Source: Chiloscyllium plagiosum (lineage: Eukaryota). From it: 61,507 nt of DNA. A program made the translations under genes and the position numbers. The notes under the pieces were generated by a model that was not told the DNA's origin, made no database searches, and saw only the letters and a list, made by a program, of their open reading frames with translations. Shown here in pieces: positions 7,495 to 54,434 of the stretch (position 1 is its first letter; each line of letters opens with the position of its first letter). The stretch covers positions 28,987,861 through 29,049,367 of the forward strand of contig NC_057746.1 of assembly GCF_004010195.1 (NCBI RefSeq). Reading direction: 5' to 3'.

Positions 7495-7857
7495 AAACTG
7501 CAGCAGATTTACATGTGACAGGACCATTTGACCCCATCATGGGGGTTGTTGGGGACGATGTCATCCTGGACTGTGTGCTGATCACGGCTGTAGCCCCAGA
7601 GAATATCGAAGTCCGCTGGATCAACATGGAATATGGCTACAACTCACCCATCCACATGTACACTGGGAGAGCAGACGACCTAACATTTCAACCCTCAACC
7701 TACAATGGCCGGACTGAGATGTTTCTCGATGAAGTGGCACAGGGGAATCTCTCTCTCAGGCTTAAAGATGTCAGCGTCTCCGATAGGGGACAGTACCAGT
7801 GCTTCGTTGTGTCCAATGACAAGCATAGCGATATCACAGTGACCCTGAATGTTACAG
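7495..7857 (+). CDS. Butyrophilin-like protein, IgV exon
   Basis: ILDC...EVRW...YNGRTEMF...GNLSLRLKDVSVSDRGQYQCFV is the BTN/MOG/B7 IgV signature; phase-1 acceptor ttccag (alternative in-frame cag at 7503/7506), donor g|gtcagt at 7858. Confidence 0.92.
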
Positions 7858-27378: not shown

Positions 27379-28425
27379 TAATTGAGAATATCTGAGGCAT
27401 GGTTAGTAAGTTTGCAGATGACATCAAAACTAGTTGTCTAGTGGATGATGAAGAAGGATATCTAAAATTATAAAGAGATCTTGACAATTGGGCCAATGGA
27501 CTGATGAGTGACAGATGGAATTTAATTTGGATAAGTGCAAGATATCGCATTTTGTTTTCACAAACAAGGGAATGACTTATGCAATTAATAATAGGGCCAT
27601 GGGTAGAACTTAGAGAACAAAGGGTTCAGGTAGATTATTATTTGAAATTTGCAACATAAGTAGATAGAGTGGTTAGGAAGGCATTTAGCATGCTTGCCTT
27701 CACTGCTCAGATTTTTGAGTATAGATGATGGGACATTATGTTGAGGTTGTACAGGATATTGCCTCTTGTCACCCAGTTCTGTTTGGAGAAAGTTGTCACC
27801 CAGTTCTGTTCTGCAGATGCTGGAGATCAGATTCAGGAGTGTGGTGCTGGTAAAGCACAGCAGGTCAGGCAGCATCTGAGGAGCAGGAGAATCAATGTAT
27901 AGGGTGTAAGCCCTTCATCAGGAATCCAGTTCCAGTTGCCTTGTTATAGGAAGGCTATTATTAAACTGCAGGGAAGGATGCCCGGAGGCATGGTACATTG
28001 GGGAAACCGAGCAAAGGCTACGACAACGAATGAATGGGCACCGCATAACAATCAACAGACAGGAGGGTTCCCTCCCAGTTGGAGAACACTTCAGTGGTCC
28101 AGGACATTCAGCCTCGGACCTTCGGGTGACCATCCTCCAAGGTGGACTTCGGGACAGGCAGCAGAGGAAAGTGGCCGAGCAGAGGCTGATAGCTAAGTTC
28201 GGTACCCAGAGGGAGGGTCTCAACCGGGACCTTGGATTCATGTCACCTTGGCGATTACCTTGGTGATCACCTTGGGACCTTGGTGATTACAGGTGATCAC
28301 CATTGCACTACACACACACACACGGATATTCCTACACACACACACTCTCACATACACACGGGGGGTGTACAAAGTTAAAAATCACACAACACCAGGTTAT
28401 AGTCCAACAGGTTTAATTGGAAGCA

Positions 28426-28460
28426 CACTAGCTTTCGGAGCGACACTCCTTCATCAGGTG
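28426..28460 (-). ncRNA. Minimal type I hammerhead ribozyme motif (family B, antisense arm)
   Basis: Minus strand cac CUGAUGA a ggagu guc gcucc GAAA gcU A gug; one G-U pair in stem II. Confidence 0.6.
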
Positions 28461-28837
28461 ATTGCGGAGGGCTCGTTCGTAACACAGAATTTATAGCAAA
28501 AATTTGCAGTGTGATGTAACTGAAATTATACATTGAAGAATTGATTGTTTGTTAAGCCTTTCATCTGTTAGAATACAGTGATAGTTTCACTTCTTTCATG
28601 TGTAAATCACAAAACCCTTTTTTTTAAAAGTTGCATTTTCAGGTTAACTGTTAACCCGAGAATGCAACTTTAAAAAAATAGGGTTTTGTGATTTACACAT
28701 GAAAGAAGTGAAACTATCACTGTATTCTAACAAATGAAAGGCTTAACAGACAATCAATTTTTCAATGTATAATTTCAGTTACATCACACTGCAAATTTTT
28801 GCTATAAATTCTGTGTTACGATCGAGCCCTCCACAAT

Positions 28838-28872
28838 CACCTGATGAAGGAGCGTCGCTCCGAAAGCTAGTG
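28838..28872 (+). ncRNA. Minimal type I hammerhead ribozyme motif (family B)
   Basis: Stem I cac/gug, core CUGAUGA(+A), stem II GGAGC/GCUCC, GAAA, palindromic AGCU stem III, predicted cleavage after CUA at 28869. Confidence 0.68.
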
Positions 28873-29900
28873 TGCTTCCAATTAAACCTGTTGGACTATA
28901 TCCTGGTGTTGTGTGATTTTTAACATTATTAAACTGGATAGGGTTCAGAAAAGATTTAGCAGGAATTTGCGGGTGTGGAGGGTTTGAGTTATTAAAATAG
29001 GGTAAATAGGTTGAGACATCTTTACTGACATAACCAATCTGAAAATTAGAAAGAACCTCTGAATTTATTATTCAAAAGCCAGAGCTTTCAGCTACAGGTA
29101 AATATAAATAAGTTGATTTTCTTCAGTCTTAAAGGGGCTTTTACAGCAGAGAACAGCGAACAGAGACAGCTCCTGAGCTGTTGGAAATCTGAAGATTTCT
29201 TTGTATTTTGTTCATAGCCCCAAGGTGTGCAGCTTCCTGAGAACCAGTCACATCATTGTTGGCAGGCTTTTGTCATCAGTAACTGGCCACTAATCTACAA
29301 GCCAATCAGCTTCTTGTTGCTGGCTCAGTCGCCATTTGTAAACCCTATTTCGGGCACCAGCTCATCTGCAACTTCTCCTACTACTGCTGGAACCAGCAGC
29401 TTTGTAAACAGTGTTTAAAATGAGTCGGGTTACTTGCTTTCGAAAACAGTCATCCTTGGTTTTAAAACATTTCAGACTATTTCAGATTGCAATAAAATAA
29501 AAAGATACAGTTTTTACCTTGTTGAACAGTGTATCACTAAGTCTGATTTATATTTCTTTGTCTCCTCTCCTTAACCAATACAATCACGTTAGCTTCATTT
29601 TTGAGGTGTGAGTGGTGACAATACTATACTGCAATCTAAGTTGGGAAATTGTCCTCCACTTTGCCTTCTGGTCAATGTGTTTATCTTTGACCCAAACTCA
29701 GTTTGGTACCAAAGCAAAGACAGAGCAAAAGGCTCCTCTCCTCTCTCCAACTCCCAAATTCCCAATGATCATTTCAAGCATTGGAAGACAAAATTGATAG
29801 CTAGAAGTACAGTTCTGCAGTGATCTAACCAAGTGGCATAGGGTGCCATGCTTTGGGGCCTACCCCCACAACCCCCTTCCTAATGTCTCTGTGATTGCAG

Positions 29901-30185
29901 GTATGGGTCAGCAACCCTGGATTGAGATGGAGGGCCAAATGGGCAATAGCATCAGACTGGGCTGCAGATCCGAAGGCTGGTACCCAGAGCCGCCCATCCT
30001 GTGGGTGAATGGAGATGGAGTGAACATGACGGCCCAGCAGGAAACCACATACCAGCCAGACAATCAGGGGCTGTTCATTGTCAGCAGCTCCATCGAGATC
30101 TCCAAACACTCCCTGAACAAATATACTTGTCTCATTCACAACGTGATCCTGAAGGAGTCACGGGAGGCTCACATCCAGATTGCAG
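29901..30185 (+). CDS. Butyrophilin-like protein, IgC exon
   Basis: GMGQQPWI...IRLGCRSEGWYPEPPILW...GLFIVSS...YTCLIHN...IQIA matches the BTN IgC motif CxSxGWYPxP; 285 nt, phase 1-1, ttgcag| and |gtctgt. Confidence 0.92.
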
Positions 30186-31587
30186 GTCTGTCATAATAGG
30201 AAAAGAGCTTCACAGATACTCAGCAGGCTGGGTGAAAGAACATGAATCTGACGGTAGAGAAATATAAAATCCCGAGGAAATTCCATGACTGAAACAGGCT
30301 CCTCATGACCCTAATAGGCCACAGTTGCTGATAATAGACTAATCTAGGCTCTTCAGACCTCACATAACAACAACAGACACCTCATAGTGAGGGTGTCTTG
30401 GAGATAGAGTCAGGCTGTAATGGAGGAAGAGGCAGTGAAGGAGATGGGGGAAGAGGGAGAGCCAGTGATGGGGATACAGGCTGTGATGGCGGGGGAAGAG
30501 TGGGGTTGTGAAAGGTTGGGGTGTATTGGAGAAAAGGAAAGAGGTCTAATCTGGGAATAGCATGTGAGAGTGGGTTTGGGTGAACTTATTCTCAAGTAGT
30601 TGACTGTTCTCTCCCCCTTCTCTCTGTGAGATCGTGTTTAATAATGACCAAGATTAGTGCATGGAGAAAATACCCTCTTTATTAAGCATCTGCAGTAGCA
30701 TATTTTGAGAGGGCGATGGAATCCAAAGTACTGTTTTACAATAGCCTCTTTATACACAGTTCTTAGACTCATTAAGATTTTAGCACAATGGCATTGCATA
30801 GTTGCATTCAATTTATACAAAAGTTTGTGTGACATCTGTCCTGGGGAAGCAGCAGATGGTTTAAACACTTGCTAAACGCTGACTGTTACTCCTGATGGGA
30901 ATTGAATGTCTGTCCAATCTGAGCTTGCATAATTAAGAGGCATTAATCCTTTTGTCTTTCAAGTCTTTCAAGTAAAAATACTAAACCTACATGATCAAAA
31001 TAAGTAAGAAATTATACATGTACTAAATAAAGGACTAGAGAATATTAAACTGATCTCAGCAGCTGGTTTGTGAGATTTCATGCCAGTTTTGACATTCATT
31101 CATGAAGTTTCAAGGATGCGCTGTTTTGACAGTAAGCTTCTTAAATGGATAGCAGGCCTACTTAATATTGTATGAAAAGGCACATGCCAGTGGAGGACTC
31201 TATTTGATGTTTTGCAATCTATTCAGATCCTGAGAGACAGTTATTAAGCACTGATTAACATTATAATCTGTCCTTAATTTGAGTAAGTTATGGAGACATG
31301 TTGGTAGTGTGGCATTTTTCTGAGTAGGTTACGGTACACTTATTCTGGGATAACCTTTGATACAGAGACAAGTCTGCTTAAAGCATAGGACCAATACAAA
31401 TTGAAAGGTGGAAAGAAGCAGTAATGGGTTGGAAGGGATGTTTTAATTTAGTTTGTCTTGTAATAGTAAAACCACAGTTTAATGAATGAATGTAGATGTG
31501 GTGTAGTAAACATAGTGTGTTTGTGAATGAGTTGGTAAAGAGAATTATAATGCAATATCTCACATCTCTCTCTCTCTCTCTGCACAG

Positions 31588-31704
31588 ATGTCTTCTTCCT
31601 CAAGTCAGAAGTGACGGTGATACTCTTGATCATTGTTTCATTTTTGGCTGGAACATTAATTTCTTCGTCATGCTGGTGCTTTCAGCATTTTAAATCAATA
31701 AAAG
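31588..31704 (+). CDS. Butyrophilin-like protein, transmembrane exon (DVFFLKSEVTVILLIIVSFLAGTLISSSCWCFQHFKSIK)
   Basis: (ct)n tract + gcacag acceptor, 117 nt open phase 1-1, IxIAD-xFF junction typical of BTN, 24-residue hydrophobic span, donor aag|gtgaca. Confidence 0.85.
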
Positions 31705-46640: not shown

Positions 46641-47984
46641 GAACTATTTCACAGACCTTGCTTGGGCAAGTATGAATCGCATTTGTGAAGGTGTGATGTA
46701 ATATGTAGACCAGAAAAGTCAAGGGCAGCAGATTTCCTCTTGGGTTGAATGAGACGGGGTCTGAGACCATCTTTTCATTTGAGACTGAGATTGAATTTTT
46801 GATTCAAATTTTTTGTTTAAATATGCTTAATTAACTGAATTTAAATCACTGCACCCAGGCTGAGATCCATCCTCAGGTTTTCAGTGGATTAGTGGGGGAA
46901 CAAGGTTATTATCCAGAATATTCCCATTTTCTAAATATCCAAGCATGACATTTCCAGTCCAAAGAAAACATCCTCCTTGCATTGCTCATATGAAGTTGTA
47001 TCAATGAGATCACCCTTCATTCTCTTATACTCTGAGGAATAAAGGTCTCGACCACTCAATCACAGTTCAGAGAACAATCCCCACCAAAGATCCATCTGGT
47101 GAATCTTTGTTACACTCGTTATGAGGAAGGTCTATCCTCCTCAGGTAGGGACAACAAAGGTTCTTGGGATGCCAGCTGTGGTTTCGATGAGTGTCTGTAA
47201 AATTGCTGTCAAAGTTATATACTTTTGCTAAGGAAATGCAGGAGTTAACAGTGATCTCCATAAACAGGATATGATATCTGAATACACTTCAGCTGGAGTT
47301 CTGAGGAAGAGTCACTCAACTTGACACCTTAAAACTGCTCTGGATTAGTGGTGCTGGAAGAGCACAGCAGTTCAGGCAGCAGCCGAGGAGCAGTAAAATC
47401 GCGTTTCGGGCAAAAGCCATTCATCAGGAATACAGGCAGAGAGCCTGAAGGGTGGAGAGTTAAGTGAGAGGAGGGTGGGGGTGGATTGATGCCCTGGGGT
47501 TGAAGTGTTCCGAGGCGGAAGATGAGGCGTTCTTCCTCCAGGCGTCTGGTGGTGAGGGAGCGGCGGTGAAGGAGGCTCAGGACCTCCATGTCCTCGGCAG
47601 AGTGGGAGGGAGAGTTGAAATGTTGGGCCACAGGGCGGTGTGGTTGATTGGTGCGGGTGGGGAGGGATGTTCCCTAAAGCGCTCTGCTAGGAGGCGTCCA
47701 GTCTCCCCAACGTAGAGGAGACCACATCGGGAGCAATGGATACAATAAATGATATTGGTGGATGTGCAGGTAAAACTTTGATGGATGTGGAAGGCTCCTT
47801 TAGGGCCATGGATGGAGGTGAGGGTGCAAGTTTTGCAGTTCCTGTGGTGGCAGGGGAAGGTGCCAGGATGGGAGGGTGGGTTGAAGGGGGCGTGGACCTG
47901 ACCAGGTAGTCACAGAGAGAACGGTCTTTGCAGAAGGTGGAAAGGGAAATATGGTGGGGTCTGGGGTCTGAGGTGGCAGAAATG

Positions 47985-52645: not shown

Positions 52646-54008
52646 ACACCAGTTTACACAGTTGTCGATATTGAGATCAATTTGTCCATTTGATTATTCT
52701 GCCAATGTCACTTTGTAATTTGATACGTATCTGTCAGTGTTTCACAACGTCATCTATTGTACCATTGGGAATGTTGGATTTGTGGCTTTCTGTCCCGGCA
52801 TCTAAGTAATAAATCAGTAGAATGATGGAAACATTGTTAACACCAAAGGAATGTTCTTAACTCGCAGAGAGATTGATGACAGAACTGAGCAGAAGTGAGC
52901 TGTAAATAAATGTATCGGATAATCTGAGCATTGGGTTAAGAACACAAGAGAGCAGAGGTGAGGAGGTTATAAGATCAGAAATTGATCACAAAAGAGTTTA
53001 ATACTAATAATGTCTCCTGTCGCTCAGCCAATTTCCCAAACAGGACAAGCCTTCAATGCGACATGCTCCCCATAGTCGCTGCTTAAAATCCAATACCTTC
53101 CCCAAGGGAACCGCTCCCTTTGGCTGTGGGTTTTCACATTCGCACCACCCTCTGGAATATAATCCCTCCGAATATCGGAATGAAAACACCTTTTGTGATC
53201 AGTTGATTTTCTTTCTTTCTGAGCGAGTGTCGGTGGGGCCTGTCTTATGGAGGTTACAGCATCGACAGAAAATCCACTGGCTCATCTCTCCAGCCTTCCT
53301 CTGGAAAGGAACATTCCAGAAACAGGGAAACTGCCTCGGCTCCAGTGGGAGGTGTCAGTTGTGGTTCAGTAGGAGCGCTCTTCCCTCTGATTCAGGTCAG
53401 GGGCATCGAGGCCTGGACAATAATCCAGACGGAGCCTGCCGTGCGGGACTGAGAGGGGATAAGGCAACTGCTCTGCTCACTGGGTTCGTGACTGTGTTTC
53501 ATTTGTTTATGTAAATCACAACAGCGAGTACATTTCAGAAAGGCTGAATGGTCAACGTGCTTGGGTAAATCTTATTGTCGTGAAGGACGCTATATAAATG
53601 CAAGAGATTCACAAATCTAATTCCTGGAGAGACTGCCTCCGTATCTGTCATCTCAATATCTGACGGACATGTATAATACTTTGTCTCTGAATTTGAGTGC
53701 ATGCAATCACTCACACAATTCAGGTTACAGATCCGAATCTTACACCATGTTTCACCAGAGGGTTTGGAACCGGGGCAGTGAGTTCAGTCTGCAGCAAAAT
53801 GTCAGGAAAACTCCCTCACCGCCCATCTCCGCCTCATATCTCTCTCCGTCCCACCCAATGTCAACACACCATGGACTTTCCCCCTCCCGGCCAGAGTTCG
53901 TCTTCTCCTCCTACTCCTCGCGTTCTAACTCCGTTTCTTCTTCAACATATTAACGTTTATTTCCCTCCCTTTAAAATATCTGCAGCATAAAGCTATCTTA
54001 TATATTAT

Positions 54009-54356
54009 TTCTTCACCGATCCGGTCATATTGGATTGTGGGTACACCTTCTGCCGCTCCTGTATCACCCAGAGTTGGGAAGAGAAGGAGATAAACTCCTG
54101 TCCGGAATGTAGAGAGGTGTTTCCGGAAAGAAACCTCAGGGTAAATCGGGCCTTAGCGAATCGGGCCGAGGAGGCTCGAAAATTAAAGCTGGATCCGACA
54201 GAGAAGGAAAGTAAACCTCACTGTGAGGAACATCAGGAAGATCTGAAGCTGTTTTGTGAAACTGACAAGAAGTTGATCTGTCTGATTTGTAGAGATTCGC
54301 GGGAACACAGAGAGGACCGCTTCCTGCCGATCAATGAGGCTGTTGAATCTTACAAG
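54009..54356 (+). pseudogene. TRIM pseudogene exon: truncated RING plus B-box
   Basis: FFTDPVILDCGYTFCRSCI...CPECR, CEEHQEDLKLFCETD...CLIC...H; start codon and first CxxC absent (in-frame TAA at 53988), RING His to Tyr, last B-box His to Asp; donor aag|gtaaag. Confidence 0.9.
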
Positions 54357-54434
54357 GTAAAGGGTAAATATCTTATAAACTGAGAGCTCTATTATGTTCC
54401 GACACATTAATTCTGTAATTTCTCTCAATTCCAG

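Follow-up and report, generated by a model that had tools for sequence, protein, structure and literature searches.

The window, by which we mean the whole 61,507-nucleotide stretch of the Chiloscyllium plagiosum genome that was analysed, contains a candidate immune gene and, between two of its exons, a retrotransposon insertion built around a near-perfect palindrome (Table 1). IgV, IgC and membrane exons follow one another in order on one strand, which is the arrangement of a butyrophilin/B7-like gene, the membrane stretch near 31590-31660 being judged by eye and the gene model being drawn from sequence alone. The splice sites of the IgV and IgC exons are phase-compatible, which places the palindrome within an inferred 22 kb intron, 976 bp upstream of the IgC exon, and agrees with the original prediction that it lay in the intron of a candidate immune gene. 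An ISRE-like sequence, GAAACTGAAA, is found at 2940-2949, ~4.5 kb upstream of the IgV exon; the window contains 14 such loose matches, this one included. Further downstream, a RING and B-box exon of a TRIM-type gene is present at 53991-54380 on the forward strand (Pfam).

Table 1. Features of the insertion and of its host gene, in window coordinates (PLE, Penelope-like element; TSD, target-site duplication)
Feature	Position	Strand	Evidence
Host gene IgV exon, start approximate	7495-7857	+	V-set, E 1.7e-9
TSD, left copy ATTATTAAACTG, inside old LINE-like repeat	27957-27968	+	direct repeat
End of 5'-truncated PLE ORF: C-terminal GIY-YIG endonuclease, YIGET motif	27969-28246	+	
39-nt patchwork of local 12-14-mers, only in this copy	28247-28285	+	
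Start of the element's CA-rich 3' UTR	28286-28361	+	
Inverted 12-nt stub of PLE 'tail'	28362-28373	-	
Left palindrome arm, inverted pLTR	28374-28648	-	arm comparison
Minimal type I hammerhead, left arm, one G-U pair in helix II	28426-28460	-	
Palindrome centre T, in GTTAAC-T-GTTAAC	28649	.	arm comparison
Right palindrome arm, direct pLTR ending at tail-less end	28650-28924	+	arm comparison
Minimal type I hammerhead, right arm; predicted cleavage after CUA at 28869	28838-28872	+	
ATTAAA signal (28881) and poly(A) place of family transcripts from other copies	28881-28900	+	
TSD, right copy ATTATTAAACTG	28925-28936	+	direct repeat
Host gene IgC exon, butyrophilin/B7-like	29901-30187	+	C2-set_3, E 1.2e-22

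Anatomy and identity of the insert

The palindrome was confirmed as first described, 551 bp long with 275 bp arms about a 1 nt centre, and 11 of the 275 arm pairs are mismatched; its joint at 28649 lies at the natural near-palindrome of the family, GTTAAC-AGCTAAC. Folded as RNA it reaches -454.5 kcal/mol (z -52.7), a value matched by none of 100 shuffles and in keeping with the long hairpin expected of the stretch if transcribed, whilst as DNA its fold amounts to -299.9 kcal/mol. A 12 bp direct repeat encloses the palindrome plus the GIY-YIG fragment as a single insert. The surrounding host repeat is presumably a CR1-type LINE, and its uninterrupted copies display the empty site: the 11 paralogues examined, taken from 998 search candidates, all have a single 12-mer between the flanking sequences seen here (identical in five, with 1-2 changes in six), the 12 bp repeat is therefore a true target duplication, as had been proposed. 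Repeats of 9-13 bp were also present at all five other palindromes checked.

At its 5' joint the GIY-YIG fragment overlaps the target by two nucleotides, TG. The 39-nt patchwork that follows may be a scar of slippage or repair, and the joint it interrupts (28246-28286) occurs without it in other family copies. The joint between UTR and tail falls inside six consecutive G (2 + 4), requires no overlap and is unique in the genome.

Searched against Pfam, the GIY-YIG fragment and a longer family piece gave no family, whilst the top ESM Atlas matches of the fragment were GIY-YIG clusters at 0.95 and its homologues carry RVT_1, both of which uphold its original identification. A reverse transcriptase domain (PF00078) lies upstream of the nuclease in one homologue, P0007 (79% identical); none was observed in the long family copies of this genome. 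The closest named proteins to the GIY part are from Chiloscyllium punctatum (94-97%). The family copy at L042 and its homologues read VYLIRCRQGC...YIGET, with two cysteines between the GIY and YIG boxes as in EN+ Penelope-like elements, and further traits of these elements are found here: a pLTR in direct or inverted orientation with an optional 30-40 bp tail, a short target duplication at an AT-rich site and, at motif level, a hammerhead within the pLTR. A CX2-5CxxC linker precedes the nuclease in 10 of 11 homologues examined, at a position outside the window's fragment; this linker is present in Neptune and Nematis and lacking in Penelope/Poseidon, according to the available text of PMC8557442. 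Measured against the Neptune-type elements described there, which have a C-terminal GIY-YIG with CCHH in addition to the linker, the likeness resides in shark homologues of 73-94% identity with the linker zinc finger and the two GIY-YIG cysteines, and the window differs in that only the nuclease end is present. Judged on these sequence traits, the arms are the hammerhead-bearing pLTR of an abundant PLE of Neptune-type architecture, probably Neptune or Nematis. The same GIY-YIG end was also seen fused to unrelated predicted shark proteins, namely ankyrin, GPCR, Ku80, septin and P450 (P0001, P0003, P0009, P0022, P0044), which are either exonised PLE pieces or annotation errors.

Hammerhead motifs and transcripts

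An intact minimal hammerhead had been predicted on each strand, and both are there: each has the core boxes CTGATGA...GAAA, a 5-bp helix II and a 3-bp helix I, and each is without helix III, in whose place stands a palindromic AGCU. A scan of the window with Rfam at E<=1 returned no hammerhead match. The motifs resemble the minimal hammerheads of metazoan PLEs, as these are presented in the accessible part of PMC4209133, in being of type I, in the unpaired base before helix II, in the palindromic positions 15.2-16.2 and in the lack of helix III; they differ in their short helices, of just 3 bp (helix I) and 5 bp (helix II), and they are known from sequence. The same source describes minimal hammerheads in pairs, one on each strand and separated by 100-700 bp, and a minimal motif for which cleavage was absent in the monomer and weak in the dimer. 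For a lizard PLE, the portion of PMC11167929 consulted has the ribozyme requiring protein, and being dispensable for insertion in vitro.

In an equilibrium prediction of the full palindrome transcript, the hammerhead helices have probabilities of 0.0 on both strands, whilst in a single arm taken alone helix II is predicted at 0.93-0.97 and helix I does not form. Each strand has only one sense hammerhead, and because the antisense arm would be transcribed first on either strand, the sense ribozyme is predicted to be zipped into duplex and inactive. Both ribozyme motifs are thus predicted to be sequestered in a transcript of the palindrome. A second hammerhead-bearing repeat family has many copies in the window (at 406, 16151, 16902, 27295, 47427, 48831, 51119 and 60825), with an ORF piece at 47580-47909 on the reverse strand that has a cysteine linker and matches GIY-YIG weakly (E 7e-4). 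The single Rfam match, to mir-101 at 583-635, scoring 34 of 60 bits and below threshold, was rejected as a microRNA: it is a short hairpin with a hammerhead core by sequence, likely the stub of a related PLE end.

Family transcripts in run X21 are mainly sense and have poly(A) ends at 28898 and 28900 (166 and 173 reads), downstream of the ATTAAA and ~30 nt past the hammerhead site. A base other than that of the window was carried by 173 of 175 reads at 28733 and by 40 of 40 at 28549, these reads are therefore assigned to other copies, and their differences are family variants also present in DNA runs. No reads fell in the unique flank 28996-29300 in the ~2% of run X21 that was sampled, which is too little to bear on expression.

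A viroid-like rod RNA with ribozymes of both polarities had been raised as one outcome of this arrangement; taken further, such a viroid-like or retrozyme-like rod would have its ribozymes active in each polarity and would pass through excision, circularisation and replication. The core boxes are indeed intact on both strands, the fold is rod-like as in viroids and non-LTR retrozymes, the family is transcribed and sister palindromes exist. Yet hammerheads of both polarities are trivial, since a palindrome is symmetric, and a single sense hammerhead per strand cannot free a unit-length RNA: the available text of bioRxiv 10.64898/2026.07.22.740005 defines retrozymes by tandem same-sense units (non-LTR retrozymes having at least two such hammerhead units), whereas the window has no tandem same-sense ribozymes and no route to a unit-length circle. 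The motifs, moreover, lack helix III and, where a viroid-like rod would have foldable ribozymes of both polarities, are predicted to be sequestered, minimal hammerheads were inactive as monomers in the part of PMC4209133 cited above, and what the window holds is a DNA insertion with a target duplication. This reading did not survive, and we regard it as extremely improbable. Only slightly less doubtful is an effect of the insertion on its host gene, whether by intronic dsRNA that is edited or diced, or by a poly(A) site in the sense arm that would end the message downstream of the IgV exon. Such an effect is favoured by the high stability of the hairpin, by the orientation of the right arm, which agrees with that of the host gene, and by the polyadenylation of family transcripts just there; against this, the RNA reads come from other copies, a change private to the window at 28901 adjoins the poly(A) site, the signal would sit inside the duplex, and the changes of the palindrome itself show no A-to-G excess on the sense strand. 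We thus find no sign of a viroid-like RNA or of a host-gene effect at the locus, and the insertion is most likely inert intronic DNA.

Head-to-head palindromes across the genome

The family whose end repeat forms the arm is very large: 1,409 DNA candidates and 5,473 exact 21-mers were counted, and 43,771 protein-level candidates were obtained for the GIY part. An inverted arm lies head to head within 1.5 kb at 7 of the 19 best other arm loci, and a search for exact 17-mers in facing pairs with a spacing of 50-80 nt returned at least 27 such places in the genome (control, 0). Both arms are complete in 20 of the 27, a full tail is present on exactly one arm in 23 and on both arms in none; three of the places, L133-L135, have common flanks and are, by their sequence, probably a single locus. 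The palindrome at L070 is more perfect (98.6%) than that of the window, and GIY pieces are joined to inverted arms also at L008, L037 and L129. One place, L127 (G000:C29:20.28 Mb), contains an 836-bp palindrome (371-1206, 99.5%) whose flanks are mirrored for ~140 bp, and is either an assembly fold-back or a secondary inversion.

Inverted pLTRs, an optional tail, target duplications and palindromic joints are described in the available parts of PMC3846280 and PMC8557442 (Fig. 2 legend). The complex insertions of EN+ PLEs reported there are like the window in their 5' truncation, head-to-head pLTRs and palindromic joint, and again in the one-ended tail, the short target duplication and the AT-rich site. 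Unlike that layout, the GIY-YIG/UTR piece of the window lies beyond the inverted arm rather than enclosed by the two arms, 12 nt of tail are left where theirs is 30-40 bp, and the centre is common to a second insertion. The fallback reading that came with the original prediction, an ordinary PLE inversion on insertion, was essentially right: there is nothing unusual in the locus as such, which belongs with the many by-products that a known retrotransposon class leaves behind.

The centre of the palindrome nevertheless has a history of its own. The genome copies with the same centre, a count suggested at the outset, amount to four loci, and no parent element with this centre followed by the ORF was found among them. 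The left arm of the window carries three variants within 11 nt of the centre, and of 3,080 places that match the region only two have this triple haplotype, the window and a palindrome on contig C7; both are palindromic, with the variants on the left arm in each. The two palindromes are 97.9% identical over 563 columns, yet have unrelated flanks and separate target duplications of 12-13 bp. Two of the three variants occur at 53 places including the window itself, and among the 52 others only C7 has the window's centre and no linear donor of the haplotype was found. The variant at arm position 111 relates the arms differently: it is present in the left arm of the window and in both arms of C7, whilst the right arm of the window is without it, so that the right arm reads 84A/111T and the left arm has 111C together with the centre variants as in C7.

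Further pairs were found among the 27 places. L072 (G000:C21:12.42 Mb) and L129 (G000:C37:16.35 Mb) have an identical complex centre and unrelated flanks; their tails are on opposite sides, and one arm of L129 encloses a GIY-YIG piece. L068 and L127 also have a common centre. Homogenisation of the arms was considered for the latter pair and set aside; the mirrored flanks of L127 make this pair weak evidence. In all, sister pairs number three among ~25 distinct palindrome loci, whereas most of the 27 centres differ from one another, from which we conclude that most palindromes are made anew and that a minority, judged by their centre sequences, are likely copied from a parent junction.

The shared centre also bears on the age of the insertion, which had been called young for its few arm mismatches. 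The mismatches are few, but three of the 11 are common to the C7 sister, their count is therefore not a clean clock and was dropped as one, those three being inherited; measured against the majority base in 14 family copies, the GIY part departs at 7 of 278 positions, and the claim of youth is weakly based. A 49-nt contig of run X13 (organism B) matches 28906-28954 exactly, across the right joint, and hints that the insertion may predate a species split, its 19 + 30 letters either side of the joint being below the 31-letter rule. In the flank, a further run of organism B departs from the window at 5 of 147 bases, whilst organism A runs match at 372 of 372.

Origin of the palindrome

The reading we hold to be probable, with good confidence, is a target-duplicated, 5'-truncated PLE insertion with head-to-head end repeats, which arose from a tail-less start of reverse transcription, a parent junction shared with C7 and a jump into the UTR and endonuclease. 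The GIY-YIG nuclease would have made a staggered 12-nt cut in the AT-rich site, reverse transcription of a putative RNA template would have started at the tail-less end, copying would have crossed a head-to-head junction likely inherited from a parent common to the C7 copy, and the reverse transcriptase would then likely have jumped into the UTR/endonuclease end of the element, this order of jumps being conjectural; the hammerheads would be passengers of the pLTR. A useful comparison is PAc, a Poseidon element of Anolis carolinensis which, as given in the available sections of PMC11167929, is alike in that the tail is the gap between two start sites of reverse transcription and in its AT-rich target; the window's duplication starts with ATT, the preferred cut motif of PAc. 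PAc differs in belonging to the Penelope/Poseidon clade, which is without the linker zinc finger. The pattern at position 111 stands against a single clean copy, and better fits a history of two templates or of later conversion.

That the palindrome is merely an assembly fold-back is unlikely, to the point that we give it almost no weight. No contig spanning the centre is among the matches listed, which are dominated by family copies, and L127, one of the 27 loci, combines mirrored flanks with near-identical arms, such that artefacts or secondary inversions may occur; the window's arms, however, carry 11 mismatches, the tail stub is on one side only, the target duplication is at both ends and the flanks are unmirrored, C7 has the same centre, and the X13 contig, short as it is, crosses the right joint. 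A weightier alternative, though still the less likely one, has the palindrome arise afresh where it now lies, either with both cut DNA ends as primers or through self-priming of the GTTAAC near-palindrome, in which case the likeness to C7 would stem from the same donor RNA or from chance. Junctions do have hot spots, for L021 and L023 use the same joint without the three variants and joints at AGCT are met more than once in the 27 places; 23 of these bear the tail on a single arm, self-priming is proposed in the accessible part of PMC3846280, and in that of PMC11167929 both strands are cut and extended and two start sites of reverse transcription flank the tail. Against it, no linear donor of the triple haplotype is present in the assembly, where the haplotype is confined to two palindromes, in the left arm of each, C7 is alone among the other two-variant places in having the window's centre, and a copy primed on the top strand would start with the tail and not with sense GIY sequence. 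Two steps at the DNA level are a further alternative and an improbable one: a linear truncated copy would have had its middle later replaced, by one-sided recombination, with a C7-like inverted arm and centre. The mixed variants of the two arms are as this requires, the joint between UTR and tail is unique and needs no microhomology, and the nearby patchwork resembles a repair scar; but the difference at position 111 could be one later mutation, and the GIY pieces on inverted arms at L008, L037 and L129 suggest a routine by-product of insertion.

Under the preferred reading of an inherited junction, the recurrence of one centre haplotype at two separate insertions makes it likely that palindromic junctions are re-copied. 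We therefore put forward, tentatively and with rather less than even confidence, that head-to-head PLE junctions may act as heritable templates, with reverse transcriptase reading through a 275-bp RNA hairpin and so founding small lineages with diagnostic centres. A literature search, with most subscription journals and supplements outside its reach, returned no paper on PLE palindromes in sharks and none on sister palindromes with a shared centre. For the origin of inverted PLE ends, the part of PMC3846280 available proposes self-priming, and that of PMC11167929 leaves the later steps of insertion unvalidated. The value of the locus is modest and mechanistic: two insertions with one centre suggest that some inverted junctions are copied, not made anew, and if such junctions are heritable templates, sister palindromes would preserve a trace of where transcripts ended and templates were switched in the PLE insertion pathway.
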